Part shown: positions 4,177 through 63,312 of the stretch, piece by piece | Numbering within the stretch: the stretch's first letter is position 1 | Layout of the letters: each line of letters starts with the position of its first letter | DNA from: Minisyncoccota bacterium | GTDB taxonomy: Bacteria > Patescibacteriota > Minisyncoccia > Phycocordibacterales > JABMNX01 | DNA: 64,000 nucleotides | NCBI GenBank assembly: GCA_026195275.1 | Contig: JAPHQU010000001.1 | Location: forward strand, 77,712 to 141,711 | Reading direction: 5' to 3' | The notes under the pieces: model-generated | What the model saw: only the letters and a program-made list of their open reading frames with translations | The model's database searches: none | Told to the model about the DNA's origin: nothing | Translations under genes and position numbers: made by a program

Positions 4177-4437
4177 TTACACCAAGGGCGTTTTGATAAA
4201 AACATAGAGCGTGCCAGACATGAGATAAAAACCAACCATGATCGCGCAAAGTGATGGCACCGATGTCACAAACGAGAGGACCAGGAGGAGTGAGGTAATC
4301 ATTCCATAGAGCATGAGAATGCCCACTACGTCAGCCTTAAGGAGCTCATCGATATTTTTGTTTTTAATGTCTCCGATTGCGAAGACAATCCACGCAATAA
4401 GCACCTTGGAGGTCTTGAAGATCAAGTGTCTGTTCAT
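4177..4437 (-). CDS. hypothetical small membrane protein
   Basis: 86-aa ORF, ATG at 4437, two hydrophobic helices; stop embedded in terminator hairpin AAAACGCCCTTGG-ATTACA-CCAAGGGCGTTTTG. Confidence 0.4.
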   Translation of the reverse strand: MNRHLIFKTSKVLIAWIVFAIGDIKNKNIDELLKADVVGILMLYGMITSLLLVLSFVTSVPSLCAIMVGFYLMSGTLYVFIKTPLV

Positions 4438-4589
4438 GCGTCTTCCTTTCTCTTTGGCGTGTATCTAGTCGTGAAAATACCACATATTTCTATATATAGC
4501 AATACCTCTTATAACACGACATGCGCGCTATAGTGACGGGAGTATGAGCTTACAAATGAGTAAACAAGAAGTGCTCTTGTGGTAAACCT

Positions 4590-4612
4590 AGGACCGCCAG
4601 GATATAACATTC
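4590..4612 (-). repeat. degenerate tRNA-derived fragment (variable-loop/T-stem-like GGCGGTCCTAGG)
   Basis: aggaccgccaggatataac resembles the reverse complement of the anticodon-stem/variable-loop region of the adjacent tRNA (ggaccgccaagatataagc). Confidence 0.3.
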
Positions 4613-4661
4613 GTGGGATTGGTTCACTCGGTCAAAATAAAGTAATAATCTCAGATTTGTG

Positions 4662-4735
4662 AGCGTACCAGGATTTGAACCTGGGACCGCGGAGATATAT
4701 TTCATATATTCTCTACATTCGAGTGAACTGCAAAC
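4662..4735 (-). pseudogene. tRNA 3'-half remnant (variable loop + T arm + acceptor 3' strand) fused to an AT-rich hairpin; no acceptor 5' strand or D arm
   Basis: minus-strand RNA ...GAGAAUAUAUGAAAUAUAUCUCCGCGGUCCCAGGUUCAAAUCCUGGUACGCUCA copies CGGUCCCAGGUUCAAAUCCUGG of the intact tRNA 75 nt upstream; no GAGCGUA partner for the 3' acceptor strand. Confidence 0.45.
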
Positions 4736-4740
4736 ATTTG

Positions 4741-4814
4741 TCCGTCCTCCAGGATTTGAACCTGGGACCGCCAAGATATAAGCTTGGTGCTCTAACCAAC
4801 TGAGCTAAGGACGG
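4741..4814 (-). tRNA. tRNA with anticodon UAU (AUA-decoding tRNA-Ile2-like); C1-G72 acceptor
   Basis: revcomp CCGTCCT-TA-GCTC-AGTTGGTTA-GAGC-A-CCAAG-CTTATAT-CTTGG-CGGTC-CCAGG-TTCAAAT-CCTGG-AGGACGG-A folds as canonical cloverleaf; anticodon loop CUUAUAU gives UAU. Confidence 0.7.
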
Positions 4815-4912
4815 AATGCAAGAACTATACCGTAAAGTTGGACTTCTTTGAAGCTCTCATCGTCTGTGCTACAGTGGCATCAGTTTTGTTCCAATGAACC
4901 GAGGAAAATGAC

Positions 4913-5242
4913 ATGCTTTACCGAATCGCAAAGTTGGTTATGACCAGCTACTCGATCATTGGGTCTCTTCTTGGGGCTCTCGTCGGATTCGTCATCTTTT
5001 TGGTGATCTACATCCTTCCGCTTCTCGCTTTCATCATCAACCTTTGCTGGACGCCAGTCATCGCTATCCGTGCATTCGGGCGTCTCGGGAAATATGGGGT
5101 TCCCTTTGGGGAAACATGGCGCAACGAGATCCGCGAGACCAAGAAAGCTTGGCGGGACGTCGTTGAAGGCTTCCATTTCATCTTTTGCGAAGCTCCGCAA
5201 AACATCTTCGACAATCTCCGCCGCACGCTCAGTGCTGCCTAG
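4913..5242 (+). CDS. hypothetical small membrane protein
   Basis: 109 aa, RBS GAGGAAAA 5 nt upstream of ATG, two TM helices; followed by bidirectional terminator. Confidence 0.5.
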   Translation: MLYRIAKLVMTSYSIIGSLLGALVGFVIFLVIYILPLLAFIINLCWTPVIAIRAFGRLGKYGVPFGETWRNEIRETKKAWRDVVEGFHFIFCEAPQNIFDNLRRTLSAA

Positions 5243-5255
5243 CCGGCGACAACGT

Positions 5256-5290
5256 AAAAGGGCCAGCATCCGCTGGCCCTTTCTTTTGTT
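5256..5290. terminator. bidirectional intrinsic terminator GGGCCAGC-ATCC-GCTGGCCC + TTTCTTTTG
   Basis: perfect 8-bp GC stem between convergent orf4913 and ftsH. Confidence 0.6.
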
Positions 5291-5293
5291 TGC

Positions 5294-7282
5294 CTATTCG
5301 CTGTGTTCGATATCCTCTTTTTTCTTCGGGGTGATGCCGTTTGCGATGAGGAGTTTTTCAAATTCATCGCGTTCAAGCGTCTCTACCTTAACGAGCTCCT
5401 GCGCGATCGCGTCGAGTGCACCGCGGTGTTTGGTGAGGATGTCCTCTGCCTTCTTATACGCATCGTCAATTATTTTGTGCACCTCGGCATCGATCTCCGC
5501 TGAGACCTTCTCGGAGTACTCTTTTCCGTCGATACCGGAGCCCATGAGCGCGCGACCACCCTCTCCCTCAAGCGCGACCGGCCCGATCTTATCTGACATA
5601 CCGTATTTGGTCACCATGTTGCGCGCGAGCGCAGTGAGCACCTGGAGGTCATTCGATGGACCAGTCGTCACATCATCAAAAACCATCTGCTCAGCGATGT
5701 ACCCACCAAGCGTCGTCGCTATATCATCGAGAAACTCTTTCTTTGACTGCATCCTCCGCTCATCAAACGGGAGCTTGAGTGTGTAGCCTGCAGCGCGACC
5801 ACGCGAGATGATCGAGATCTTGTGTACCGGGTCAGCGTACGGCAACACGCTTGAGACAAGTGCGTGCCCCGCTTCATGGTACGCGGTGATCTCCTTTTCT
5901 TTTGTATTCAAAACATGACTCTTGCGCTCTGGGCCGAGCATCACCTTCTCGATTGCGCGAATGAGGTCGTACTGAGTCACCTTCTTGCGATTCTCACGTG
6001 CCGCCAAAATCGCACCTTCGTTCATGAGTGAGTAGAGGTCGGCCCCCGAGAAACCAGGCGTACGCTCGGCGATCACGGTAAGGTCAACGTCTGAGTAGAG
6101 TGGCTTCTTGCGCGCGTGGATCTTGAGGATTGCTTCACGGTCAGAGCGGTCCGGCAGGTCAACAGTCACCCGGCGGTCAAATCGCCCCGGGCGAAGGAGT
6201 GCAGGGTCAAGGACGTCCGGGCGGTTGGTCGCCGCCATCACGATCACCTTTTCATTCGGCTCAAATCCATCCATCTCCACAAGGATCTGGTTGAGCGTCT
6301 GCTCGCGCTCGTCATTACCACCCCCGACTCCTGTGCCACGCACACGCCCCACTGCATCAATCTCGTCGACAAAGATGATCGCCGGGGCGGACTGCTTCGC
6401 GAGCTTGAAGAGATCGCGTACACGAGATGCTCCAACGCCGACGAACATCTCGACGAACTCTGAACCGGAGATCGAAAAGAACGGCACGCCAGCTTCACCT
6501 GCGACCGCGCGCGCGAGCAAGGTCTTCCCGGTTCCCGGTGCACCCATGAGGATAATCCCCTTCGGGATTTGCGCGCCAATCGCGATAAACTTCTTTGGGT
6601 TCTTAAGAAAATCAACAATCTCAACAAGTTCTTCTTTCGCTTCCTTTGCACCGGCAACATCTTTAAACGTTACTTTCTGGCTCTGGTCATTCGGGTCAAT
6701 GATGCGCGCCTTTGATTGCCCGAATGAGAATGCTTGCATGCCGGCGCCTTTCACCTGCCGTGAGAGGTACCATATGAAGAATGCGATGAGGAATATTGGG
6801 ATGAGGAAAGGCGCAAGTGAAAAGAACCAGAATTTAAACCCACTCGGGTCTTTCACTTCAACACTCACCTCTCCCAACTCATCGTGAGTGACGCCATAGT
6901 TGGCAAGCGTCTCGGTGAGTGCGGTATTAGCTTCTTTCTTCGACTCTTTCTCAGTAGGCTCCTCACCCTCCTCGGCAACATACGTGGCTACCACTCTCTC
7001 GCCACTTACCACAATCGAAGAGACTTCTCCTGCCTGTATATCTCGCGCAAGCTCAGAGATAGGGATGTTTTTGGTCCCCTCTTCGCGACCAACAATGAAT
7101 GAGTATGTGCTCACCAAAATAAGGAGGAGGAGGAGTGTGCTGAGCAGGTTCGCCCAGAACTGCTGACGTTCAGGGAGTTTTGGCATCTCGGACGAAGGCT
7201 TCTTCTCACCCTTCTTCGGATTTTGTCCGGTGTTTTTTGCGGCTTTTTTCTTACCGCTGTGATTTTTTCCAAAGAGGTCCAT
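5294..7282 (-). CDS. ftsH: ATP-dependent zinc metalloprotease FtsH (Lys-rich N-terminal extension)
   Basis: ORF 5294..7444; start set at ATG 7282 ([13 protein letters not shown]...) preceded by TATAAT 12 nt upstream; TM helices, AAA Walker [12 protein letters not shown], Zn site HEAGHA. Confidence 0.9.
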
Positions 7283-15185: not shown

Positions 15186-15272
15186 AGAGTAAGTATAAAG
15201 TTGAAAGTCAAAAGTTGAAAGTGATACTGTATTGATCTCTTGGTGTCTGTATTCAAGAGAAGAACAAAAACA

Positions 15273-16139: not shown

Positions 16140-16255
16140 AAGAACAAGTATAAAGTCAAAAGTTTAAAGTTGAAAGTGGAAAACGGATTATTCTATGGTA
16201 TAGTTTTTACAGAATCATCGTAGCAATTCTGCTTTGAGAACTAATGGAGGACGTC

Positions 16256-17892: not shown

Positions 17893-18022
17893 GAAATCAG
17901 TATACGGGTAATGGCTAAAAGTTGAAAGTGGATGCGACAGAATCCACTAGGATCGCCAAAATCGAATGAAGAACGAAGAGGCTAAACCTGCTCGCTTAAA
18001 ACACGAAAAAGCAGATACATGT

Positions 18023-19846: not shown

Positions 19847-20404
19847 TTATGCCTGAAGATCTTGTAATGCCTTAATTGCTGCTTGAGCATTATTAAGCTT
19901 GTTCTTGCTTCGCGAGAAAATCTTCGCCGTCACATCTTTGATCCCGGCGAGTTCAAGTACAGTACGCACTGAACTTCCCGCCACCAAACCACGCCCGGGA
20001 GACGGGATGATCTGAATCTGTGATGCGCCATACTTGGCGGACACATCATGAGGGATACTCATCTCTTTGGTGGTACGCACGGTGATCATGTTTCGCTTTG
20101 CCTGGCGCGTCGCCTTCTCGATCGCAAGCGCAGTGTCACTTGCTTTTCCGACACCAACACCCACACGCCCTTTTTTGTCGCCAAGCACCATGGTAACCGA
20201 GAAGCTGAAGCGGCGACCTCCAGCAACAACACGGACTACTCGACGAATTGACACGATCTTCTGTATGAACTCGGAACGTGCGCGATCTGCTCGACGGACG
20301 ATCCTGCGCGGATTCTTCTTAAAGGTATTCTTCGCAGGATTTACATCAACGCCGGATGTCGCCTGGGTATCGTTTTTTTCTATTGTTGCGGTTTCTTTTG
20401 TCAT
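19847..20404 (-). CDS. rpsE: 30S ribosomal protein S5
   Basis: VVAGGRRFSFSVTMVLGDKKGRVGVGVGKA core S5 motif. Confidence 0.9.
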   Translation of the reverse strand: MTKETATIEKNDTQATSGVDVNPAKNTFKKNPRRIVRRADRARSEFIQKIVSIRRVVRVVAGGRRFSFSVTMVLGDKKGRVGVGVGKASDTALAIEKATRQAKRNMITVRTTKEMSIPHDVSAKYGASQIQIIPSPGRGLVAGSSVRTVLELAGIKDVTAKIFSRSKNKLNNAQAAIKALQDLQA

Positions 20405-37354: not shown

Positions 37355-38860
37355 CTATTCCACCAACATCCGTGTAAAACTCTCTTCTTCTTGTCTGCGC
37401 CAACGAATGAGAATCAAGAGAACGACTCCATAAAGCAGGTAGATACCAACCATAAGCCACAACGGGAAAGTGTCGAGATGCAGTGATGCAAAGGGGAGTC
37501 GTGCGAAGAGATCGACCACACCAAGCTGATACGAAAGAAAGATCTGCGCAAGAAACGCAAACGGTGTCGCGAGAGATTGACTCACAAACCCCACAACACC
37601 CGCGAGAAACCCGAAGAGCATGGTAATTGGCACCGTAATCAGCACAAGGAGGTTTACCGGCAAAGCGACAAGCGAGAGCTCGCCGACCTTGTAGAGAAGA
37701 AGTGGCAGTACAAATATTTGCGTTGCAATAGTCGCCGTCGCAAACTCGCGAAATTGCAAACGACTCGGCACGAAGTGAAGCCACTCCTCAAGAAGCGGCG
37801 CAAGCCAGATGAGCCCAAGCGTCGCAAGGAACGAGAGTTGAAAGGACGCGTCGTGAATAAGGATCTTTGGGTTGTGAAGCAACATGAGAAACCCCGCGAT
37901 GAAAAGCCCCCGGGTCATGTCGCTTGTGCGCCCAGTCGCGCGCGCAAGAATCACAAAAAGCGCCATGATGCTCGCGCGCACAATAGTTGCCGAGCCACCA
38001 ACCATGATCGCAAAGAGAGGGATCGCGCTCACTCCAAGCATGAGCCCGATTGCAGACGGAAAGAATGAAAGTGCGCGCATGATCGCGTCTGCAACGATGG
38101 TCACGTTGTAGCCGGAGAGCACCACAATATGGATGATACCGGTGGTACGAAAGTCTTGCTGCAGCTTCTCGCCGAGTGACTGCTTCGCACCAACGACGAG
38201 CCCACCAAGAAGCGAGCTCTCCGGGTCTGGGATGAGTCGGCCAATACTCTCAAGAAATGAATGTTTAAAACTAAAAAGATGACGCTTGATAATATTTCCA
38301 TGCCCACTTGATACAAAGGATATCTCGGGGAATATCATTTCATAAAATATGTCGTCCTTTGAGAGATATGCTGCGTAGTTAAAGTACCGACCGGCGTCTG
38401 TTGTGAATCCACCCGGTTTCATAAGCTCACCCTCAAGACGCACACGGTCGCCATAGTGAAACACGGGGTACGAATCCGCAACTACGCGGACCTTTTCACG
38501 GACGAGAGTCTCAGAGATGTGGTCTACAACCACTGTGTAGTTGGTATTATTCTCGCGCCGGTCCGGTTCATCAATAACAACCCCTTCGAGTATTGCTTCA
38601 CTTCCCGTACGTGATTCAAACTCGATACCTCCACGCTTGAGTTCAGCAATATCCATGCGCAACACCCCGCTCCCAACCGCAAGAATGACAAAACTAACAA
38701 GCAATACTTTTCTGCGCTCCTGAGAGACGAGCGAAGAGAGTGCAACAGCTCCTCCGAGAAAAAACACAAAGAAAGAAAATGCAAATCCAAGATCAAAAAA
38801 GGAGCGCCAGAGCACTCCGATACCAAACCCGATGATGATTATGTAGAGGAGAAACTTCAT
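37355..38860 (-). CDS. comEC: ComEC/Rec2 competence channel domain protein (DUF4131 + competence domain)
   Basis: 501 aa polytopic membrane protein; IHIVVLSGYNVTIVADAIMRAL motif typical of ComEC channel domain. Confidence 0.7.
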   Translation of the reverse strand: MKFLLYIIIIGFGIGVLWRSFFDLGFAFSFFVFFLGGAVALSSLVSQERRKVLLVSFVILAVGSGVLRMDIAELKRGGIEFESRTGSEAILEGVVIDEPDRRENNTNYTVVVDHISETLVREKVRVVADSYPVFHYGDRVRLEGELMKPGGFTTDAGRYFNYAAYLSKDDIFYEMIFPEISFVSSGHGNIIKRHLFSFKHSFLESIGRLIPDPESSLLGGLVVGAKQSLGEKLQQDFRTTGIIHIVVLSGYNVTIVADAIMRALSFFPSAIGLMLGVSAIPLFAIMVGGSATIVRASIMALFVILARATGRTSDMTRGLFIAGFLMLLHNPKILIHDASFQLSFLATLGLIWLAPLLEEWLHFVPSRLQFREFATATIATQIFVLPLLLYKVGELSLVALPVNLLVLITVPITMLFGFLAGVVGFVSQSLATPFAFLAQIFLSYQLGVVDLFARLPFASLHLDTFPLWLMVGIYLLYGVVLLILIRWRRQEEESFTRMLVE

Positions 38861-39769: not shown

Positions 39770-41491
39770 CTAGCGAATGTCCACAATACGAAGCCGGAGT
39801 TCGGGAGACCGTCCAAAGGTTGAGCGCTCAATGTGCGCAACCACATTAACATTCTTCCCCGGCGCAATATCGACTTCGAAACTTTCTTCAGTGCGGAAAA
39901 ACGCAATCGCCGGAATAACTCTTCCGTTATCAGCGAGACACACCTCAAGATGATTCATGGTCTTCCCGAAACGTCGCACACTTTCAATTAGCACATTTTC
40001 GAACAGAAATATTGGTTTTGGATTACCTTCGCCAAACGGTGCAAGTTGATTGATTAACCGGTAGGTGCTCCACGACACATCAGCGGGCGTCAGTGTCGCA
40101 TCAACCTGTATCGACCCTTCTTTCTCGAGGGTTTCCACTTGTTCGTATGCTGTGTTAAGCACTGCTTCAAGTTCGTGCACACACTCACGAGTCACTGAAA
40201 AACCGCCGGAAAAGTGGTGTCCGCCAAAAGCAATAAGCGAGTGTGTTGCCGCCTTCATAAGTGAGACAACACTCACCTCTCCGTTTGAACGACATGACCC
40301 TTTAAGCACCCCACCACCTTCTTCTCCCCAGAGACACACTGTCTTTCCATGCTCATCTACAAGCGAGTTGGCGGCGAGTCCGAGGAGCGACGGCTTCCAT
40401 TTTGGGTTCCCCATCACAATAACCTCGCCAAGTGAGTCTCGCTCAGCAATTTCTTTCCTGATCTCGCGCACCATCGCGGCAACGACCCCTTTTCGCTCAT
40501 TATTGATCTTGTGCAAATGTTCTGCATACATACCACCCTCTGCCTCATCGCGGGTCGCAAGTAAATGAAACGCTTCATCCGGTCGGTCCATGCGGCTTGC
40601 CGCGTTGATGCGCGGAGCGATCATGAACCCAATATCATCTTCGGTAATCTCGTGTTGTTTCATCCACATCTTTCGGAATAATTTCATAAGCCCAGGGCGA
40701 GGCGATTTCCTGAGCACCATAAGACCATAGTGTGCGAGCACTCTATTCTCCCCCGTGAGCGGTACCATGTCGGCAACAGTTGCAATACCTACAACATCAA
40801 GGAGCCATTTCTCCCACCCTTCTGATATAGCAAAGTACTCACCCCCGAATTGTTTGTCCCCTTTTTGTATGAGCGCAGTGACCAGCTTCCACGCAACCCC
40901 CGCACCACAGAGCCCATCAAATGGGTAGGTGTCATCCGCCTGTTTGGCATTCACGATTGCGTAGGCCTCAGGCAACTCATCGCCCGGGAGGTGGTGATCG
41001 GTGATGATTACCTCAATACCAAGTTCGTTGGCATGCGCCACCGCATCAACATCAGTGATCCCAACATCAACAGTAATAATAAGTGAGACTCCTTGCTCAT
41101 TAAGTTTGTCTATTGCACACGCATTAAGCCCGTACCCCTCTTCGTGTCGGTGTGGGATGTAGTTGGTAAACTTCTTGTATTCGACTTTTTTGAAAAAGTC
41201 GTGAAGCACCACGCCGCCGGGGATACCATCGCAGTCAAAATCGCTGTATATCGCAATCATCTCTTTGTTTTTCATTGCCACGAGAATGCGATCAACCGCG
41301 CGACCCATATCTTTCATTAAAAAAGGGTCGTGAAGATGTTTTCCATAATCGGGATGTAAAAAATGTTCCGCTTCCTCGCGGGTCGCAATACCGCGGTTTG
41401 CGAGTAGTGTCCTCAAGAGCGACGGGTACACGTCAAGAGCATCCGATTCCTTTGTTTTCTCCTCCCGATTTTCTTGAGTACTAGTTGTCAT
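39770..41491 (-). CDS. recJ: single-stranded-DNA-specific exonuclease RecJ
   Basis: DHH motifs IAIYSDFDCDGIPGG, ITVDVGIT, ITDHH; DHHA1 domain; 573 aa. Confidence 0.9.
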   Translation of the reverse strand: MTTSTQENREEKTKESDALDVYPSLLRTLLANRGIATREEAEHFLHPDYGKHLHDPFLMKDMGRAVDRILVAMKNKEMIAIYSDFDCDGIPGGVVLHDFFKKVEYKKFTNYIPHRHEEGYGLNACAIDKLNEQGVSLIITVDVGITDVDAVAHANELGIEVIITDHHLPGDELPEAYAIVNAKQADDTYPFDGLCGAGVAWKLVTALIQKGDKQFGGEYFAISEGWEKWLLDVVGIATVADMVPLTGENRVLAHYGLMVLRKSPRPGLMKLFRKMWMKQHEITEDDIGFMIAPRINAASRMDRPDEAFHLLATRDEAEGGMYAEHLHKINNERKGVVAAMVREIRKEIAERDSLGEVIVMGNPKWKPSLLGLAANSLVDEHGKTVCLWGEEGGGVLKGSCRSNGEVSVVSLMKAATHSLIAFGGHHFSGGFSVTRECVHELEAVLNTAYEQVETLEKEGSIQVDATLTPADVSWSTYRLINQLAPFGEGNPKPIFLFENVLIESVRRFGKTMNHLEVCLADNGRVIPAIAFFRTEESFEVDIAPGKNVNVVAHIERSTFGRSPELRLRIVDIR

Positions 41492-48916: not shown

Positions 48917-50665
48917 TTATTCTGAAACCACACGGAGTACCTCCTCCACTGTGGTAATACCCTGAACCGCTTTGAAGATGCCGTCTTCAATCATAGTCAT
49001 CATACCTTCTTCTTTCGCTCGCGCCTCGATCTCTTCGGTGGTCGCCCCTTTCATGATGAGTCCTTTGATCGCGTCAGAGAGATGGAGGATCTCATGAATA
49101 CCAATTCGCCCACTAAAACCATCCTCACACATCTCTGATGGTTTCTCCTTATAAAACGGAATATCTTCCCAAGTTGCGTCATTCTTAATCAACTTTTCCT
49201 CCTTCAGTGCCTTAAGAACCGCGTCAAGGTCAACTGATTGACCAAGCTTCTCAATCTCGGCTGCCGACATGGTGTATTCTTCTCGCTCTCCACAAAGCTT
49301 TCGTACCAGTCGTTGTCCGATGATAACCTCAAGTGTTGATACGAGAAGAAACGGCTCGACATCCATGTCGAGCAGTCGCGGAATTGCACCGGCAGCAGAG
49401 TTTGTGTGAAGTGTTGAGAGCACGAGATGTCCGGTCAAAGACGCGTTAATCGCGAGCGCCGCTGTCTCATTGTCACGGATCTCACCGACCATAATAATAT
49501 CTGGGTCTTGTCGCACGAGTGCGCGCAAACCGTTGGCAAATGTAAATCCAATATCCGGCTTCACTTGCGTCTGATTGATGCGCGGCATCTGATACTCGAT
49601 TGGGTCCTCGATTGTAGAGATATTAACATTGGTCGTATTGAGGATATCAAGGACCGTGTAGAGCGTAGTTGTCTTTCCTGACCCGGTCGGCCCAGTCGTG
49701 AGAATCATGCCGGTCTTCTGGCGCGTCGCTTCGTGGATGCGCTCGAGTCCTTCGCCATGAAAACCGAGTCCTTCGAGTGTGAAGCCGGAGATATTCTCCC
49801 GAAGGAGGCGCATGACCGTCTTTTCACCAAAGTAGGTAGGAAGTACCGACACACGGAGTGAGACGCGTTCGTTCTCCGACTCCATCTTAAATCGACCGTC
49901 CTGCGGCAGACGCTTCTCATCCAGTTTGAGGTTGGAGAGCACTTTAATGCGCGCTGTTATGGAAGAAGTGGCTTCCTTCGGAAGTGTCATTGCATCATGG
50001 AGGATTCCGTCGATACGGTAGCGGATCAACACATTGTCTTCACGCGGCTCGATGTGTATGTCTGACGCGTTTTGGTTGATCGCATGACGAAGCAACGAGT
50101 CAACAATGCGCACCACCGGCAGGTCTTCGGCAAGCCGTTTAAGATCGCTCTCTGACATGTTGGCGCCCTCTTCAGGCACACCTTTCAGTGATGCAGTCTC
50201 ACGCTTAATGATTTCACCGAACTCTTCCTTGAGACTCTTTTGATACTGCTTGAGTGCCGCTTTGATCGAAGCGGTGTCGGTGAGTCGCGGCAATATCTTG
50301 AGCCGGACCTTCTTCTTAACAAAATCGATTGCCGTGAGGTCATCCGTATTAAGCATAGCGACCTCAAGACTATCGTCGCCTTTTTTATACGCGATGATGT
50401 TGTGATTGCGTGCAATTGGTTCAGGAATAAGCGAGAGTACGTCAAAGTTTACCCGCGTATTCTGGAGGTTAACAAAGGGAATTCCCAAAATATGTGCTTG
50501 TGCGCGACGCAGGTCATCCTCGGTAACATCGCCGTTACTCACGAGTATATCTCCGACACGAACATCTTTTTTCTCCGCCTCTTTCTCGGCAGATTCAAAA
50601 CCGCTCTTTGATACTATGCCGGCATCGAGGAAAAATTCTTTGAGCTTTGATTCGTTAATGTACAT
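48917..50665 (-). CDS. pilB: type IV pilus assembly ATPase PilB (GspE family)
   Basis: start MYINESKLKEFF (ATG 50665); Walker A GPTGSGKTTTLY, Asp/His boxes, tetracysteine-like CGE...C region; N-terminal GSPII_E_N domain. Confidence 0.9.
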   Translation of the reverse strand: MYINESKLKEFFLDAGIVSKSGFESAEKEAEKKDVRVGDILVSNGDVTEDDLRRAQAHILGIPFVNLQNTRVNFDVLSLIPEPIARNHNIIAYKKGDDSLEVAMLNTDDLTAIDFVKKKVRLKILPRLTDTASIKAALKQYQKSLKEEFGEIIKRETASLKGVPEEGANMSESDLKRLAEDLPVVRIVDSLLRHAINQNASDIHIEPREDNVLIRYRIDGILHDAMTLPKEATSSITARIKVLSNLKLDEKRLPQDGRFKMESENERVSLRVSVLPTYFGEKTVMRLLRENISGFTLEGLGFHGEGLERIHEATRQKTGMILTTGPTGSGKTTTLYTVLDILNTTNVNISTIEDPIEYQMPRINQTQVKPDIGFTFANGLRALVRQDPDIIMVGEIRDNETAALAINASLTGHLVLSTLHTNSAAGAIPRLLDMDVEPFLLVSTLEVIIGQRLVRKLCGEREEYTMSAAEIEKLGQSVDLDAVLKALKEEKLIKNDATWEDIPFYKEKPSEMCEDGFSGRIGIHEILHLSDAIKGLIMKGATTEEIEARAKEEGMMTMIEDGIFKAVQGITTVEEVLRVVSE

Positions 50666-50763
50666 ATTTATAAATGAGTACTTGAGCGCACACGCATCGT
50701 TTCTTAAAGTATACCAAAGAAACACACGTCTTTTGTTTGGTTTTCGACAAAATATGTGTATTG

Positions 50764-54345: not shown

Positions 54346-54354
54346 GTGCGGACT

Positions 54355-55518
54355 ATGACAGACAGTAAAAAAGGTGCAGAAACACTTTACACAAACCTGG
54401 ATATTACTAACCAAGAAGGGTCTGAGGTGAAGATTAGTGGCGAGATCCCCACTGAGGTGCAGGTACCATACCGCGAGAAAGCCATCAAGAAGCTTGGCGA
54501 AAACGCGACAATCGACGGCTTTCGCAAGGGACACATCCCCGAGAAGGTGCTCGTGGAGAAAGTCGGCGAGGAGCGGGTCTTGCACGAGGTTGCTGAGATG
54601 GCAATCACGGATATCTACCCTGCTATCGTGATTAAAAACAAGCTCGATGTGATCGGGCGACCACAGGTATCGATCACCAAGCTTGCCGCGGGAAATCCGA
54701 TCGGCTTCTCTATCACCACCGCGGTGATGCCGGAGGTTTCCCTTCCCGACCACAAGAAGATCGCTGAGGAGGTCATGAAGGAGAAAGACGACCTCGAAGT
54801 GACCGACGCAGACGTGGAGAAGGTGCTCACTGAAGTACGCCAAGGTAAAGCACGTTTTGATAAAGCAAAAGCCGAAGCGGAGGCAAAAGAGAGCGGTGCA
54901 GACGGAGGAGAAAATGAAGAGGCAAAAGACAGCAAAGAAGACCTTGAGGAAGAACTCCCTGAACTCGATGATGCATTCATTGCAACACTCGGTGGCGACT
55001 TCAAAACTGTTAAGGAATTCGAGGAGCGCGTCCGTAAAGACCTTGGTGTAGAGAAAGAACGCAAAGCACGTGAAAAGAAGCGTGTCACACTTTCAGAGAA
55101 GCTCATTGAAGAGGCAAAAGCTGACCTTCCAAAAGTCATGGTTGAGAGTGAGCTCGACAAAATGCTAGCGCAGATGAAGGATGATGTGGCGCGCGCCGGC
55201 ATGAAGTTCGAAGATTATCTCACCCACGTGAAGAAAACCGAAGAAGATATGCGTGCGGAGTGGAAGGAACAGGCTGAGAAGCGTGCAAAACTTCAACTTG
55301 TACTCAATAAGATAGCGACCATGGAAGATATCCATGCCGACCATGATGAGGTACATAAGGAGATGGACAAGATTCTCGAGCAGTTCAAAGACGCCAACCC
55401 GGAGAACGTCCACATCTTTGTCGAAACTCAACTCACCAACGAGGCAGTGTTCAACTTCCTTGAGAACGGAGGAAAGAAAGATAGAAATAAGGAGGAAAAG
55501 CAAGAAGCTGGTCAGTAG
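54355..55518 (+). CDS. tig: trigger factor
   Basis: GFRKGHIP ribosome-binding signature, FKBP-like middle domain; ATG 54355 (track ORF starts GTG 54346). Confidence 0.9.
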   Translation: MTDSKKGAETLYTNLDITNQEGSEVKISGEIPTEVQVPYREKAIKKLGENATIDGFRKGHIPEKVLVEKVGEERVLHEVAEMAITDIYPAIVIKNKLDVIGRPQVSITKLAAGNPIGFSITTAVMPEVSLPDHKKIAEEVMKEKDDLEVTDADVEKVLTEVRQGKARFDKAKAEAEAKESGADGGENEEAKDSKEDLEEELPELDDAFIATLGGDFKTVKEFEERVRKDLGVEKERKAREKKRVTLSEKLIEEAKADLPKVMVESELDKMLAQMKDDVARAGMKFEDYLTHVKKTEEDMRAEWKEQAEKRAKLQLVLNKIATMEDIHADHDEVHKEMDKILEQFKDANPENVHIFVETQLTNEAVFNFLENGGKKDRNKEEKQEAGQ

Positions 55519-55533
55519 TCATCGGTCACCACA

Positions 55534-55574
55534 AAAACAAATGTCCGACATTAGATGTCGGACATTTGTTTTGG
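55534..55574 (+). terminator. intrinsic terminator AACAAATGTCCGACAT-TAG-ATGTCGGACATTTGTT + TTGGG
   Basis: 16-bp perfect stem after tig. Confidence 0.6.
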
Positions 55575-55633
55575 GAAGGGTTGTTTGTTCAAACTGATAA
55601 ATTTGCTAATATAGCCGTACCTAAGAAACAAAT

Positions 55634-56236
55634 ATGAAACACGAATTCAAACCAACAAAATCACAGCTCGTCCCCATGGTGATCGAGAAATCACAGTTCG
55701 GTGAGCGGGCCTTTGATATTTACTCACGACTTCTCAAGGAGCGCATTATTTTCCTCTCAGGGCCGATCAACGACGCAGTCGCAAACCTCGTCGTGGCGCA
55801 ACTCCTCTTCCTTCAGTCGGAAGACCCAAAGAAGGACGTCTTCCTCTACATCAATTCCCCGGGCGGCTCAGTCACCTCAACCATGGCAATGATCGACACG
55901 ATGAACCACATCAAACCGGACGTTGCGACCGTGTGTGTCGGCATGGCGGCTTCAGGTGGCGCATGGACACTCGCCGCAGGCAAGAAAGGCAAGCGCTTCG
56001 CGCTCCCAAACGCAGAAGTGATGATCCACCAGCCGCTTGGCGGCGCCGAAGGGCAAGCAACCGACATTGAGATCACCGCGCGCTGGATCCTCAAGACCAA
56101 AGAGCGCATGACCAAGATGATGGCGGACTTCACCGGGCAAGACGCAAAGACGATCGAGCGCGACATCGACCGCGACTTCTGGATGACCGCCCAGGAAGCG
56201 AAGAAATATGGCGTCGTCGATGAAGTCTTAAAATAA
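55634..56236 (+). CDS. clpP: ATP-dependent Clp protease proteolytic subunit ClpP
   Basis: Ser-His-Asp contexts [15 protein letters not shown]; 200 aa; no clpX follows. Confidence 0.95.
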
Positions 56237-56361
56237 GACCCGTGTCTTGTTTGTCATCGACGACGAGACGGAGGCATATTGCGAGCCTGCGAGCAAAGCC
56301 GAGCCCGGGCAGGAGGTTCTTAGTGAAGATGAGTGCGAAGCACGAAATCTGAGCTTAGAAA

Positions 56362-56392
56362 CCTGACGCTGTCGATGAGGTGCTCAAATAAG
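56362..56392 (+). repeat. DR1: displaced copy of clpP 3' end (encodes ...DAVDEVLK*)
   Basis: cctgacgctgtcgatgaggtgctcaaataag; 29/31 identical to DR2; translates to clpP C-terminal heptapeptide VDEVLK + stop; followed by own terminator 56424..56455. Confidence 0.6.
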
Positions 56393-56462
56393 TTTAAAGT
56401 AGAAAGTTAGAAGTTATAAAGCAAAAACCTTACGATATATCGTAAGGTTTTTAGATTGGTGG

Positions 56463-56493
56463 CCTGACGTTGTCGATGAGGTGCTGAAATAAG
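56463..56493 (+). repeat. DR2: second displaced copy of clpP 3' end (encodes ...DVVDEVLK*)
   Basis: cctgacgttgtcgatgaggtgctgaaataag; followed by hairpin AAACGTCACACATATGTGTGACGTTT. Confidence 0.6.
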
Positions 56494-56546
56494 CAAAAGA
56501 AGAATTTTCTAAAACAAACGTCACACATATGTGTGACGTTTGTTTT

Positions 56547-56569
56547 ACTTGGAGGTCGAGCCTCCAAGT
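56547..56569. repeat. 23-bp perfect palindrome ACTTGGAGGTCGAGCCTCCAAGT (left boundary of cargo segment)
   Basis: second near-identical copy at 57232..57254, both preceded by TTTTACTTGG. Confidence 0.6.
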
Positions 56570-56649
56570 AAAAAATACAATAAAACTGGACAGAGTTTAT
56601 ATTTTGTGTTTATATTACCCCCAGACATAGATACGGAAGGAGAGAAGAT

Positions 56650-57183
56650 ATGACCGATACGTATGGTGCTCAAGAGGCCCAAGACCTGATTGACCTCTCG
56701 GTAAAGGTTGAGGGTTTCGACAACTGGCATGATGCACTCGCCACGGAAATCGAGATTGGGGGCATCTGGGCAAAAGAGACCGGTAAGACGAAAGCGTCCT
56801 TGCTCGAGGTCTGCGACGTCATGGCGCGAATCAACAGAATATCCCGCGAAATCGCGTACTTTTCCACGCTCATCAATGAGGGCTACCAGCTCGAGGATGC
56901 CGTGGTGAGCTTCCGAGGCGACGAAGAAGACGCATGGGGGAAATGCACCTGGATCAAAGATCATCCCAGCTACAAAGACCCTGAACACCGTCTGCGCGAC
57001 ATGTTCAAGTCCGATTGTGCTATCTCGTTCGCCAGTGCATTTTTCGACACCGAGCATGCCGGTGAGCAGAGGTTCACCCTGCAGTCGGTCGCCGTCTGCA
57101 ACGGCTTCTTGTTCCACAAGACGATCCTGTTTCACCGAGTCGTCTTTTCCAAGCCGAAACAAACTGCGGAAGAAGCCGCCTGA
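56650..57183 (+). CDS. hypothetical 177-aa protein (cargo gene of putative decayed integrated element)
   Basis: strong RBS GGAAGGAGAGAAG 6 nt before ATG; own terminator 57198..57231; no recognisable motif. Confidence 0.5.
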   Translation: MTDTYGAQEAQDLIDLSVKVEGFDNWHDALATEIEIGGIWAKETGKTKASLLEVCDVMARINRISREIAYFSTLINEGYQLEDAVVSFRGDEEDAWGKCTWIKDHPSYKDPEHRLRDMFKSDCAISFASAFFDTEHAGEQRFTLQSVAVCNGFLFHKTILFHRVVFSKPKQTAEEAA

Positions 57184-57197
57184 ATCGGACTTGCAAT

Positions 57198-57231
57198 GGC
57201 CACCCCACCCTGGGGTGGCCTTTTTCATTTT
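57198..57231 (+). terminator. intrinsic terminator GGCCACCCCA-CCC-TGGGGTGGCC + TTTTTCATTTT
   Basis: 10-bp perfect GC stem 14 nt after ORF stop. Confidence 0.6.
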
Positions 57232-57254
57232 ACTTGGAGGTCGGACCTCCAAGT
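57232..57254. repeat. 23-bp perfect palindrome ACTTGGAGGTCGGACCTCCAAGT (right boundary)
   Basis: direct repeat of 56547..56569 with loop GA/AG swap. Confidence 0.6.
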
Positions 57255-57527
57255 GGTAAATTCGACAAAGCTGAAAACCCGTGATATGTTGAGGATGTAG
57301 ACTTATTGAATTAAATTTGAAACCTGAGGACCTGCTCACCATCTCGACACAGAGAATATGAACAGGTTCCGTGCTTCCCCGCCCGACCGAGACGACCGAA
57401 AATACCTTGCGTGAATACCCTATTTTTACCCCATGATCTTCACTCATCGAAACATCTCACTGAAACGGTAGCAACACAAGCGAAAAGCAAGGTTTCTTGC
57501 CCTATCCTACGGTAGGCTAAGAACCAT

Positions 57528-59057
57528 ATGTCATTAAAAGTAATACTTGTTCTGCTCATCCTTGCAGGACTCTTCGGTACCGCCTTTGGGTACTTCCTCC
57601 GGTGGATCATCTCCCTCGGAAAACGCGGCTCGATGGAGCTCGAGATCAAGCAAATGATGCTCGAGGCTCGCGAAGAGGCAAAGCAAATCGTCCAAGATGC
57701 GGAGACCAAGGCCGAAGAAACAAAAAAACAACTCCACAGTGAGTCAAAAGAGAAAGAATCGCAGCTGAAGCGAACAGAAGACCGCCTTGTGAAGAAGGAG
57801 GAGCTTTTGGATAAGCGTCAGGGCGATATCGACGCTGATGTAGAGGGTCTTAAGCAGAAAATTGAGGAGGTTCGCGCACTCAAAGAGCGTGCAAACACAC
57901 TCATCGAGGAGCGCGAAGCGGCACTTGAGAAAACATTGCACCTGAGCCAAACAGAGGCGAAGACTGAGCTCTTTAACCTGCTTGAGAAACAGCACGAGGA
58001 GGATATCCTTGTGCGTCTGCAAAAGCTCGAGATCTCCGGCAAGGAACGACTCGACCGAAAAGCGAAGGATATCCTCACCACCTCGATCCATCGTCTCGGC
58101 AACTCGGTGATCGACGATATTATGGCGACCTCGATCCAGATCCCGTCTGACGAGGTGAAAGGAAAGATTATCGGTAAGGAAGGGCGCAACATTAAAGCGT
58201 TTGAACGTGCGACCGGTGTTGACGTTATCATTGACGATACGCCAAACATGATCACCATCTCATCGTTTGACCCGGTACGCCGCCATATTGCGTGCATTGC
58301 CCTTGAAAACCTCATCACCGATGGACGTATCCAACCAGCAAAAATTGAGGAACTCGTCGGTAAAGCAAAAGACGAGGTGAATAAAACGATAAAAGAGAAG
58401 GGTGAGCAGGCCGCCTACGAAGCAGGTGTGCACAACCTCGACCCGCGCGTAATCGCGATTCTCGGCCGACTCCACTTCCGCACCAGTTACGGTCAGAATG
58501 TGCTCTACCACTCGGTTGAGATGGCACACATCGCCGGTATGCTTGCCGAGGAACTCGGCGCAGACCCGTATGTCGCTCGTGCGGGGGCACTTCTACACGA
58601 CCTTGGTAAAGCGGTCGACCACGAGGTGCAAGGCACACACGTTGAGATTGGTCGGCGTATTCTCCAGAAATTCGGCGTTGATGAAGCAATCGTTAAAGCA
58701 ATGCAGGCACACCACGAAGAATACCCGTACGACACACCCGAATCGATCATCGTGCAGGTAGCCGACGCTATCTCAGGCGGACGCCCCGGGGCACGACGCG
58801 ACAGCGTTGAAAACTACATCCAGCGCCTTGAAGACCTTGAAGCTATTGCAAACGGGTTTCCCGGCGTTGATAAGAGTTACGCAATCCAAGCAGGTCGTGA
58901 GATCCGCGTGTTTGTAACACCAGAGAAGGTTTCTGACCTTGAAGCAAAGAAACTCGCGCGAAATATCGCGCTCCAGATTGAGAATGAGCTGAAATACCCC
59001 GGCGAGATCAAGGTAAATGTGATCCGCGAGTCTCGCTCGATCGAGATGGCGCGGTAG
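57528..59057 (+). CDS. rny: ribonuclease Y
   Basis: N-terminal TM helix, coiled coil, KH domain, HD domain (LLHDLGK). Confidence 0.9.
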   Translation: MSLKVILVLLILAGLFGTAFGYFLRWIISLGKRGSMELEIKQMMLEAREEAKQIVQDAETKAEETKKQLHSESKEKESQLKRTEDRLVKKEELLDKRQGDIDADVEGLKQKIEEVRALKERANTLIEEREAALEKTLHLSQTEAKTELFNLLEKQHEEDILVRLQKLEISGKERLDRKAKDILTTSIHRLGNSVIDDIMATSIQIPSDEVKGKIIGKEGRNIKAFERATGVDVIIDDTPNMITISSFDPVRRHIACIALENLITDGRIQPAKIEELVGKAKDEVNKTIKEKGEQAAYEAGVHNLDPRVIAILGRLHFRTSYGQNVLYHSVEMAHIAGMLAEELGADPYVARAGALLHDLGKAVDHEVQGTHVEIGRRILQKFGVDEAIVKAMQAHHEEYPYDTPESIIVQVADAISGGRPGARRDSVENYIQRLEDLEAIANGFPGVDKSYAIQAGREIRVFVTPEKVSDLEAKKLARNIALQIENELKYPGEIKVNVIRESRSIEMAR

Positions 59058-59964: not shown

Positions 59965-60109
59965 TAGGTAAAGAACAGCTTATTGGAAACACGCGCATTT
60001 AATATCTGTGATTCTTGGAGTTCGCTGGGCGTCAGGTTTCTAAGCTCACCGTTCGCACTTCGTGCTCCGCTTCACAATCGAGCGCGAAAGCAAAATAGTT
60101 TGCTTTCTA

Positions 60110-60147: not shown

Positions 60148-60156
60148 ACTCGATTG

Positions 60157-60227
60157 TGCGGGTGGGGGTAATCGAAACCCCGACTACTGCTTGGAAGGCA
60201 GTCATTTTACCACTAAACTACACCCGC
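60157..60227 (-). tRNA. tRNA-Gly (anticodon UCC)
   Basis: revcomp GCGGGTG-TA-GTTT-AGTGGTA-AAAT-G-ACTGC-CTTCCAA-GCAGT-AGTC-GGGGT-TTCGATT-ACCCC-CACCCGC-A; perfect 7-bp acceptor, anticodon loop CUUCCAA. Confidence 0.8.
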
Positions 60228-63058: not shown

Positions 63059-63075
63059 TCGGGGAGCCGGAATCG
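63059..63075 (-). repeat. 17-nt direct repeat of tRNA-Pro 3' end (TCGGGGAGCCGG-AATCG), att-like scar
   Basis: 17/18 identical to 63242..63259, located 183 bp downstream (tRNA sense) of intact tRNA. Confidence 0.5.
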
Positions 63076-63241
63076 GTCACGAGTTGCTAGAGATTGTTCA
63101 GAGCAGAGCTCATCAAATCCCAAGCACTCTCGACCCCGCCTCACTGTTGCTCGTGCCTCGCAACATGTTCCGGCTTTCGATTCTCGACAGAAGCAAAGCA
63201 GTTTGCTTCCTGCTCCCCCCACTCCGCGCAAAGCGCTACGT

Positions 63242-63312
63242 TCGGGGAGCCGGGAATCGAACCCGGGCCGCTCGGTCCCAAACCGAGTACACTACCATTA
63301 TGCTACACCCCG
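63242..63312 (-). tRNA. tRNA-Pro (anticodon UGG), C1-G72
   Basis: revcomp CGGGGTG-TA-GCAT-AATGGTA-GTGT-A-CTCGG-TTTGGGA-CCGAG-CGGC-CCGGG-TTCGATT-CCCGG-CTCCCCG-A; C1:G72 typical of tRNA-Pro; one U-U in acceptor and G-U-rich D stem lower confidence. Confidence 0.65.

Follow-up and report, generated by a model that had tools for sequence, protein, structure and literature searches.

Displaced copies of the clpP end in a Patescibacteria genome point to a candidate family of miniature non-coding insertion elements

The present study concerns a 64-kb stretch of the genome of a Minisyncoccota bacterium (GenBank assembly GCA_026195275.1, contig JAPHQU010000001.1, positions 77,712 to 141,711), hereafter the window, in which the 3′ end of the protease gene clpP recurs downstream of the gene itself; statements about the window refer to these 64 kb only. 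We propose that the displaced clpP ends form the right flanks of two copies, one complete and one truncated, of an insertion element that is small, non-coding, and rich in hairpins, and we put the odds of this reading at about even (roughly 0.5). The element is approximately 100 to 170 nt long and has on its two sides the last 12 to 45 bases of the adjacent gene, once inverted and once in direct orientation. Its family is widespread in Paceibacterota, where the usual target is the segment from the T-loop to the 3′ end of tRNA genes (Gly, Pro, Arg), the clpP end being a secondary target in this clade. The units have a common architecture and a homologous, covarying core; they are patchily distributed, occur in tandem and nested copies, and have no coding capacity.

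The clpP end, its displaced copies and the unit behind it

The clpP gene (55634–56236, + strand; 200 aa) remains full length beside the insert (Pfam CLP_protease, E = 1.6e-80) and ends in GGC GTC GTC GAT GAA GTC TTA AAA TAA, with the stop codon at 56234–56236. A first-pass annotation of this DNA had claimed that the gene end is present three times, and our analysis bears this out. The genuine end (copy 0, or A; 56212–56237, + strand), of which 56216–56237 reads GTCGATGAAGTCTTAAAATAAG, is followed on the same strand by two direct repeats, DR1 (56371–56392, GTCGATGAGGTGCTCAAATAAG) and DR2 (56472–56493, GTCGATGAGGTGCTGAAATAAG), against an expectation of 0.00 by shuffling. In their longer form, DR1 (56362–56392) and DR2 (56463–56493) are 29/31 identical; the clpP-like part common to both is GTCGATGAGGTGCTSAAATAAG, a 22-mer found twice in the window (0.00 expected, 100 shuffles). 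The repeats encode AVDEVLK* and VVDEVLK* in the clpP reading frame. Copy 0 and DR2 differ at 5 nt, all synonymous, with 0 amino-acid changes (P ~2e-4, simulation), and copy 0 and DR1 at 6 nt with 1 amino-acid change (P ~3e-3). Furthermore, when the 10-residue ClpP tail plus stop was scanned in six frames, the window copies scored 35 and 31, and the top non-self score in 160 related clpP loci was at most 29, one locus (L004, discussed below) excepted. Judged by these patterns, the displaced ends behave like products of insertion events rather than of chance or slippage.

The unit behind clpP begins with an inverted copy of the gene end, A′ (TCATCGACGACG, 56254–56265, + strand), which marks its left boundary. 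As the first-pass annotation had stated, this 12-nt copy pairs with the genuine end: it is 12/12 complementary to 56212–56223, the 5′ arm of the hairpin. Inside lies a 9-bp stem-loop over the stop codon (56231–56252, + strand; 56231–56239 pairs with 56244–56252 in the RNA fold), which is kept in L161, the nearest relative. The A:A′ hairpin with its inner stem has a predicted energy of −34.8 kcal/mol (z = −3.7). Next, on the + strand, come box1 (AGACGGAGGC, 56266–56275), which follows A′ in all units of this type (type A; for example, ATCGAAAGACGGAGGCATG in the tRNA-Pro unit of L148), a variable hairpin region (56276–56295), where the window and the relatives L161 and L177 are not alignable, and the core of the element, a long conserved hairpin of ~75 nt termed CE (56296–56372; covariance-model match of 100.8 bits). 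DR1 closes the unit and can pair with A′ in the predicted fold. DR1 forms the right flank of this unit, and what lies between the clpP-end copies is conserved, structured, and multi-copy, not a decayed remnant.

Behind DR1, an AAAGT-rich spacer leads to the palindrome T1 (56393–56452 together, + strand). T1 itself is a perfect 15-bp palindrome with A5/T5 on its sides (56423–56452), and DR2 is followed by T2, a perfect palindrome of 19 bp (56510–56547, + strand; fold z = −9.1 for 56490–56620). The earlier claim that each copy has its own hairpin terminator holds for the palindromes; a simple terminator scan of the window had neither T1 nor T2 among its matches, so the word terminator is used here for their structure. 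Between T1 and DR2 we read the truncated 3′ end of a second CE (TTAGATTGGTGGCCTGACG, 56451–56469, + strand), which has TTAGA...CCTGACG in common with the CE end at 56354–56368. Since this truncated end precedes DR2, the earlier suggestion of at least two insertion events is reasonable. Two side observations concern this interval. The first is a 28/30 match to T1 in an unrelated locus, L134, where it lies at 2937–2966, ~1.9 kb downstream of clpP; it may be due to chance or to a shared terminator. The second is an AAAGT-periodic 38-nt motif (e.g., TAAGTATAAAGTTGAAAGTCAAAAGTTGAAAGTG), present after DR1 (56385–56422) and at three further window sites that adjoin gene starts or ends (15186–15223, 16141–16178, and 17893–17930).

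Two relatives carry the same arrangement. L161 (Logan SRR24942169; ClpP 83% identical, synteny kept) is the nearest relative with usable sequence, and L177 comes from an assembly in the European Nucleotide Archive (ClpP 78% identical). In L161, clpP is followed by an inverted copy of its own end (TCGGCGATAACG, matching CGTTATCGACGA), a variable AT-rich stretch, a CE segment, a second, displaced clpP end of its own (CTC ATA GAC GAA GTT CTA AAA TAG), and a terminator. L177 has a shorter CE with compensatory changes, and its flanking 45-nt repeat (43/45) spans the clpP end and the next hairpin. Thus, the direct repeats match the resident gene end in each case (18/22 in the window, 18/20 in L161, 43/45 in L177). 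Spacing and repeat length differ between the relatives: the spacing is 202 nt in L161 and 144 nt, with the 45-nt repeat, in L177. CE, the inverted copy, and the repeats are absent from L001, L081, L172–174, and ten strains of the P0010 lineage. A′ is present only in clpP loci that carry the element. In a neighbor-joining tree of ClpP, the window and L161 are sisters, and L177 falls outside the clade containing element-free relatives; this position, together with its nearly identical repeats, suggests a recent, independent event in L177. The window derives from a metagenome-assembled genome (MAG), and an assembler could have concatenated strain variants of the clpP end. However, the same architecture in two independent assemblies from other samples and pipelines, and a like architecture at tRNA genes in dozens of MAGs, speak against an artefact, which we regard as a negligible prospect.

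The core is strikingly conserved. The window CE segment 56301–56370 is 67/70 identical (96%) to that of L161, whereas clpP itself shows 71% nucleotide identity. Because the third codon positions of clpP are only 35% identical, the conservation of CE lies far above the neutral expectation. Covariation was assessed in an alignment of 9 rows fitted to the covariance model, comprising eight true copies and one weak partial hit. Both sides had changed in 10 of the 18 pairs, the covariation score was reached by 0/500 shuffles, and 89.6% of the alignment cells were paired, compared with 17 to 42% when the partner was slid by 1 to 3 columns. A′, too, changes in step with the gene end: the window and L161 differ by 3 compensatory double changes. 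Such compensation could also arise without selection, by templated correction in quasi-palindromes and between repeats.

These data raise an alternative, namely that the unit is a functional structured RNA, either a 3′-UTR element or a small RNA, with a multi-branch fold closed by A′ and DR, a terminal stem that copies the neighboring gene 3′ end, and repeats kept by selection. Its function might be 3′-end processing, stability, or action as a decoy or mimic; behind tRNA genes, the stem would form a coaxial acceptor/T-stem "top half". This explanation accords equally well with the conservation of CE, with the RNA-like covariation, which includes G-U pairs, and with the way in which A′ tracks the gene end. 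It also gains from the predicted folds of the clpP unit and of a tRNA-Pro unit described below, in which A′ pairs with the direct repeat, from the terminators that follow DR in many units, and from a promoter-like TTGTCA-18-CATATT at 56251–56280, for which we read a counterpart in L161. On the other side, the A′:DR pairing is poor in L161 (7/12 by our own reading), and the distribution of the units is patchy, with tandem, nested, and truncated copies. A functional RNA is a real, if lesser, possibility and the foremost competitor of the insertion element; the tRNA-linked units bear on it further.

The first covariance model, built from three clpP-linked CE copies, found further copies behind tRNA-Gly in L161, L174/L175, L071, and, decayed, in the window, and another copy before nusA, on its upstream side, in L039; with a second model, L044 joined the list. 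Iterating by sequence alone (nhmmer) left the CE family at 9 copies, and a loose regular expression (box1...GGGTCG) was unspecific, with 69 matches against 44 in shuffled sequence, such that only the tRNA- and clpP-linked matches are meaningful. No Rfam 15 family except tRNA and tmRNA reached its gathering score in the window, and Rfam gave nothing relevant at E <= 1 in 55400–57700 or at E <= 5 in L044 16200–16760. Two other origins were considered for the core and dropped. For a coding origin, the frame ...SLET* is open from 56238 with only a doubtful TTG start at 56247 and, by our reading, no obvious ribosome-binding site; the corresponding frame of the tRNA-Gly copy has no start at all, and the copies differ by paired double changes, not at third positions. 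For a hammerhead ribozyme (GAUGAG...CGAAA), the window CE reads AAGAUGAG-helix-CGAAA with C3/U4 replaced, the motif is absent from the other CE copies, and there is no Rfam match.

Related units behind tRNA genes

The last 18 nt of 160 distinct tRNA genes in the fetched loci were compared with the surrounding 400 nt. A direct copy (at least 14/18) lay downstream of 20 of the 160 genes, mostly at a distance of 150 to 170 nt, and upstream of 1. An inverted copy lay 11 to 48 nt downstream of 10 genes and upstream of 0. Beyond 400 nt, no tRNA-end repeat was found for any of the 160 genes, except inside other tRNA genes. The order target, spacer, inverted copy, core, direct copy was seen behind clpP (window, L161, L177) and behind tRNA-Gly, -Pro, and -Arg genes. 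In the common plan, the gene end A is followed by a spacer, often with a terminator, then by A′, sometimes split by a hairpin, box1, a variable hairpin, a CE-like hairpin (GGGGTCG...GTGACC in the tRNA units), and the direct A copy, which begins in the T-loop; terminators stand behind DR in many units.

Two examples come from L044. Its tRNA-Gly(GCC) gene is followed by a 25-nt spacer, an inverted copy of the last 17 nt (GGGCAGGGAGGATCGGA), the box (GGCCGCAGGCG), a hairpin, and CE, after which the tRNA end is repeated directly and without mismatch over 18 nt (CGATTCTCCCTGCCCGCA). Behind the next gene, tRNA-Arg, the inverted copy is perfect over 23 bp, three trailer bases among them, and is followed by box1 and a short CE. 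Tandem units occur in L014, L015, L032, and L148. At least two unrelated core types have one and the same flanking architecture. In the sister lineages L097 (13590–13969) and L015 (15780–16125), the first ~150 nt behind tRNA-Gly(UCC), a type-B unit, are common to both, and L097 has a type-A core (box1 and CE-like hairpin) nested within it that L015 does not carry.

The 64-kb window holds three units, behind clpP, tRNA-Gly, and tRNA-Pro. The second is a decayed CE copy at 60026–60096 (− strand) behind tRNA-Gly(UCC) (60156–60227, −), which scored 21.9 and 51.4 bits with the covariance models. Specifically, the left flank of DR1 (56323–56369) has an opposite-strand copy at 60029–60075 whose neighboring differences are compensatory, and the two CE copies have an exact 20-mer in common (2 matches versus 0.02 expected). 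In the syntenic tRNA-Gly copy of L161 (7389–7466), the tRNA 3′ end is repeated without mismatch over 16 nt. The third unit (63059–63222, −) lies behind tRNA-Pro(TGG) (63242–63312, −); it scored 19.1 bits with filters off, and its fold, closed by A′:DR, has z = −3.8. Here the inverted copy is split into A″ (63212–63222) and A′ (63176–63188), followed by box1 (63167–63175), CE (63073–63147), and DR (63059–63075), all on the − strand; DR is a 17-nt direct repeat of the tRNA end with a 1-nt deletion and precedes a terminator.

These units cut both ways for the functional RNA. In many lineages, tRNA-linked units are 16–18/18 identical to their own tRNA, a point in its favor. However, the acceptor/T-arm mimicry by the unit ends is seen, in predicted folds, in tRNA-linked units and not in clpP-linked units; one flanking architecture around at least two unrelated cores is also at odds with it. 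Furthermore, some repeats reach up to ~15 nt into the non-functional tRNA trailer (L096, L148, L014). Since these repeats and the inverted copy behind tRNA-Arg of L044 run past the tRNA end, they argue for an origin at the DNA level, not for tRNA mimicry. A similar comparison applies to the tRNA-like domains of tmRNA and YrlA: as there, the ends of tRNA-linked units pair into an acceptor plus T-stem helix up to the discriminator base, with a large structured insertion inside. In contrast, the helix of the units copies the adjacent tRNA and includes a paired T-loop, the clpP-linked units bear no tRNA likeness, and there is no Rfam match.

Two further observations concern tRNA genes. The tRNA-Ile(TAT) gene of the window (4740–4814, −) is followed, within 4581–4814, by two partial copies of its 3′ half (anticodon loop to 3′ end) without CE, one at 4655–4699 (82% identical, with a different acceptor strand) and one truncated at ~4581–4607, with spacers of 40 to 50 nt; the window thereby has gene-end repeat arrays of two kinds. 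In L044 (16511–16740) and L095 (~19900–20220), a tRNA-Arg(TCG) gene with a short unit or repeat stands directly upstream of a gene that we read from its sequence, not by Pfam, as that of the CCA-adding enzyme. This could be a coincidence of synteny or a functional tie to tRNA 3′-end mimicry.

Origin of the units and likeness to known systems

The first-pass annotation had explained the displaced ends by site-specific integrases that target the 3′ end of a protein gene, and had called the site an integration hotspot. In such a model, integrase-bearing islands or prophages entered the clpP 3′ end and were later lost or eroded to attL/attR scars. Direct repeats of a gene 3′ end with synonymous differences are indeed a classical att signature, and the tRNA repeats begin in the T-loop, which is said to be a sublocation of integrase crossover. 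The clpP–rny interval is polymorphic in size among relatives, as had been expected, ranging from 13 to 3245 nt over 129 loci (typically ~230 nt). However, the open reading frames (ORFs) in the large intervals are ordinary genes (clpX-like AAA, ABC transporter, iPGM, methyltransferases, TrmB, NYN) rather than genes of mobile elements. Scanned individually against Pfam, 24 window proteins and 9–10 interval ORFs of relatives contained no integrase, transposase, or reverse transcriptase, and none was among the 25 families listed by a batch scan of 34 interval ORFs. No large island was found in the window or in the 177 related loci, and no intact island at clpP or any tRNA gene in ~2.2 Mb of related loci. 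Viral contigs gave no match to the clpP-end repeats (22-mer) or to conserved core fragments; one degenerate 16-mer had 28 matches, none of which fits the CE covariance model, and these are therefore read as chance.

The one exception among the 160 loci is L004, the only locus with a longer clpP-flanked insert. There, a 1.2-kb insert without CE at the clpP 3′ end (4585–5842) is flanked by a 48-nt clpP-end repeat with only two differences, synonymous or stop-to-stop, and the second clpP-end copy is colinear with L088, where the arrangement is uninterrupted. The insert, a toxin-antitoxin cassette unrelated to the CE units, encodes a toxin of the YafQ/RelE type (87 aa, Pfam 3.4e-11), a putative 92-aa antitoxin, and a 136-aa ORF. 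It also brings its own terminator for clpP. Even with L004 counted in its favor, the island explanation would have to account for independent erosion to one core of 100 to 170 nt at more than 20 sites, which is implausible, for the inverted copy, which a classical att site lacks, and for the missing repeats beyond 400 nt of tRNA genes. We consider it improbable. What stands of the hotspot is the insertion-type duplications, with their synonymous differences and the own-end repeats of L161 and L177; the integrase or island found no support.

A purely local origin in replication errors is also conceivable: at gene ends rich in hairpins, slippage and template switching by fold-back (quasi-palindromes) would have created the inverted and direct copies with no mobile entity. 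In L161, a perfect 16-bp palindrome from the last 16 nt of clpP (AAGTTCTTAAATAATT / AATTATTTAAGAACTT, 4331–4368) amounts, by comparison with the window, to an insertion of 31 nt, and its form suggests duplication by fold-back. CE-less short inserts stand between tRNA-end repeats (tRNA-Gly(UCC) of L044, L085, and the tRNA-Ile array of the window), and the A–A′–A zigzag is the outcome expected of fold-back and then re-priming. Against this stands the homologous core, box1 and CE, between the copies at unrelated targets in many lineages; local errors are thus insufficient without a donor copy, and we hold an origin by them alone to be quite improbable.

We therefore return to the miniature insertion element and to how it might move. 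The element would insert at the DNA level, copying or recombining with its target. Plausibly, a small molecule, circular or single-stranded, would use the folded A:A′ hairpin as its attachment site and recombine with chromosomal A by means of a recombinase acting in trans; A–spacer–A′–core–A is the product that would be expected from such recombination. Later templated correction in the quasi-palindrome and between the direct repeats could then keep A′ and DR like the resident gene end. The clpP end ...GTCGATGA... (TCGAT/TCGAC) resembles the T-loop TTCGAT, which may explain clpP as a secondary target. The window encodes a ComEC-like competence protein, RecJ, and, from sequence only, a PilB-like ATPase (37355–38860, 39770–41491, and 48917–50725); going by these genes, uptake of single-stranded DNA by the organism is probable, a point of importance for models with a single-stranded intermediate. 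A bolder version, less likely but with a real chance of being true, would be an undescribed class of self-targeting mini-element in candidate-phyla-radiation bacteria: a protein-less structured single-stranded DNA or RNA of ~100–170 nt that carries an antisense copy of its target, homes to tRNA and clpP 3′ ends, and regenerates the gene end, with CE as a handle for a host recombinase or nuclease.

Several points weigh against an insertion element. No recombinase, excised form, or clean filled-versus-empty pair between near-identical genomes was seen, and a circle of 150 to 200 nt would be an unusually small recombination substrate. Each new kind of target needs a re-templated A′, which the model explains only through a secondary process. 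CE stands upstream of nusA in L039 with no detectable repeat. The 96% identity of CE where neutral sites are saturated, together with the G-U-compatible covariation, is more easily explained by selection on an RNA than by a scar left passively in the DNA. Finally, the exact ClpP occurs in one record only, an NCBI MAG protein ("Candidatus Pacebacteria bacterium") with 100% identity, and the databases searched hold one genome of the lineage; the next relatives are 83% identical, and scans of genomes and metagenomes gave none closer.

Among the known systems, the closest arrangement is that of CTX-phi and the integrative mobile elements exploiting Xer (IMEX). CTX-phi reportedly integrates at dif by XerCD through a folded single-stranded attP hairpin. 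Like the units, these elements have direct repeats of the target at both ends and an inverted target copy inside one end, since their attachment hairpin is made of two inverted target copies, and they need no element-encoded integrase. Unlike them, the units target the tRNA T-loop/3′ end or the clpP end instead of dif, and they are 100–170 nt long with no genes. The likeness lies in the sequence arrangement; the role of Xer, the single-stranded form, and the replication module are features of CTX-phi. Integron cassettes recombine through folded attC sites. They resemble the units in small size, a folded imperfect palindrome with structure conserved over sequence, tandem arrays, and, as proposed for the units, a trans-acting recombinase. 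In contrast, the palindrome arms of the units are copies of the neighboring gene end; by our own inspection there are no R″/R′ core sites (RYYYAAC/GTTRRRY) at the unit ends, and the ORFs scanned included no IntI/attI platform, nor did those scanned individually contain an integrase domain.

Accretion arrays and cis-mobilizable elements (CIMEs) at the fda 3′ end in Streptococcus thermophilus are integrase-less derivatives of elements that target gene 3′ ends. Such gene- and tRNA-targeting elements also have direct repeats of the gene 3′ end, an intact gene, tandem att-like sites, and, in some cases, no recombinase of their own. However, the units are ten to a hundred times smaller, contain the target in inverted form as well as a structured core that is conserved, and have no autonomous partner that we could find. 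Miniature inverted-repeat transposable elements (MITEs) and the REP-BIME palindromic repeats likewise lie downstream of genes as short non-coding sequences that form hairpins and occur in multiple copies, whereas the "terminal repeats" of the units vary with each copy, being the local target, and the duplications measure 16, 18, 22, and 45 nt. These variable end sequences and duplication lengths (16–45 nt) do not fit a transposase with fixed ends and stagger. A diversity-generating retroelement was rejected because the differences (T/C, C/T, A/G, C/G, T/C, A/C) lack the adenine-specific pattern required, the ORFs scanned include no reverse transcriptase, and the repeat is only 22 nt. Translational bypass, an inversion switch, and group I/II introns were dropped for want of defining features (no gain from bypass; size). 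Full-text literature searches aimed at such an element, and a broader one on integrative elements, brought up no description of it. On our best reading, the unit represents an undescribed family of miniature non-autonomous integrative elements, and the closest known systems have only parts of its feature set.

Genomic surroundings and implications

The window is a core-gene region of Patescibacteria/Paceibacterota, with a ribosomal protein cluster, EF-Tu/EF-G, tmRNA, nusA, tig, clpP, rny, and HU. The order at the locus is tig (54346–55518), clpP (55634–56236), an ORF of 177 aa (ORF177, 56650–57183), and rny (57528–59057). ORF177 has no Pfam match and no relative in the 160 loci; an antisense ORF of 300 aa also has no Pfam match. 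On both sides of ORF177 lies a 64-nt direct repeat (56543–56606 and 57228–57291; 73% identical) consisting of a hairpin, ACTTGGAGG..CCTCCAAGT, and a promoter-like TGGACA/TCGACA-N17-18-TATATT/TATGTT. Accordingly, ORF177 has the appearance of a cassette that came in together with a second copy of the region upstream of rny.

Approximately one-eighth of the tRNA genes in our sample have a downstream 3′-end copy of the kind carried by the units. Correct interpretation of strongly conserved non-coding hairpins in Patescibacteria genomes is needed. Annotators should be able to recognize pseudo-tRNA ends and false "att sites", and programs that find islands by means of tRNA-end repeats might be led astray. 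If the RNA explanation were true instead, the units would constitute a new widespread class of structured RNA with a tRNA top-half mimic. If the insertion-element reading is true, streamlined Patescibacteria genomes hold abundant tiny protein-less insertion elements, whose order of target, inverted target, structured core, and target differs from MITEs, integron cassettes, and classical islands. They would then offer an entry point to DNA movement in organisms that are scarce in integrases and transposases.

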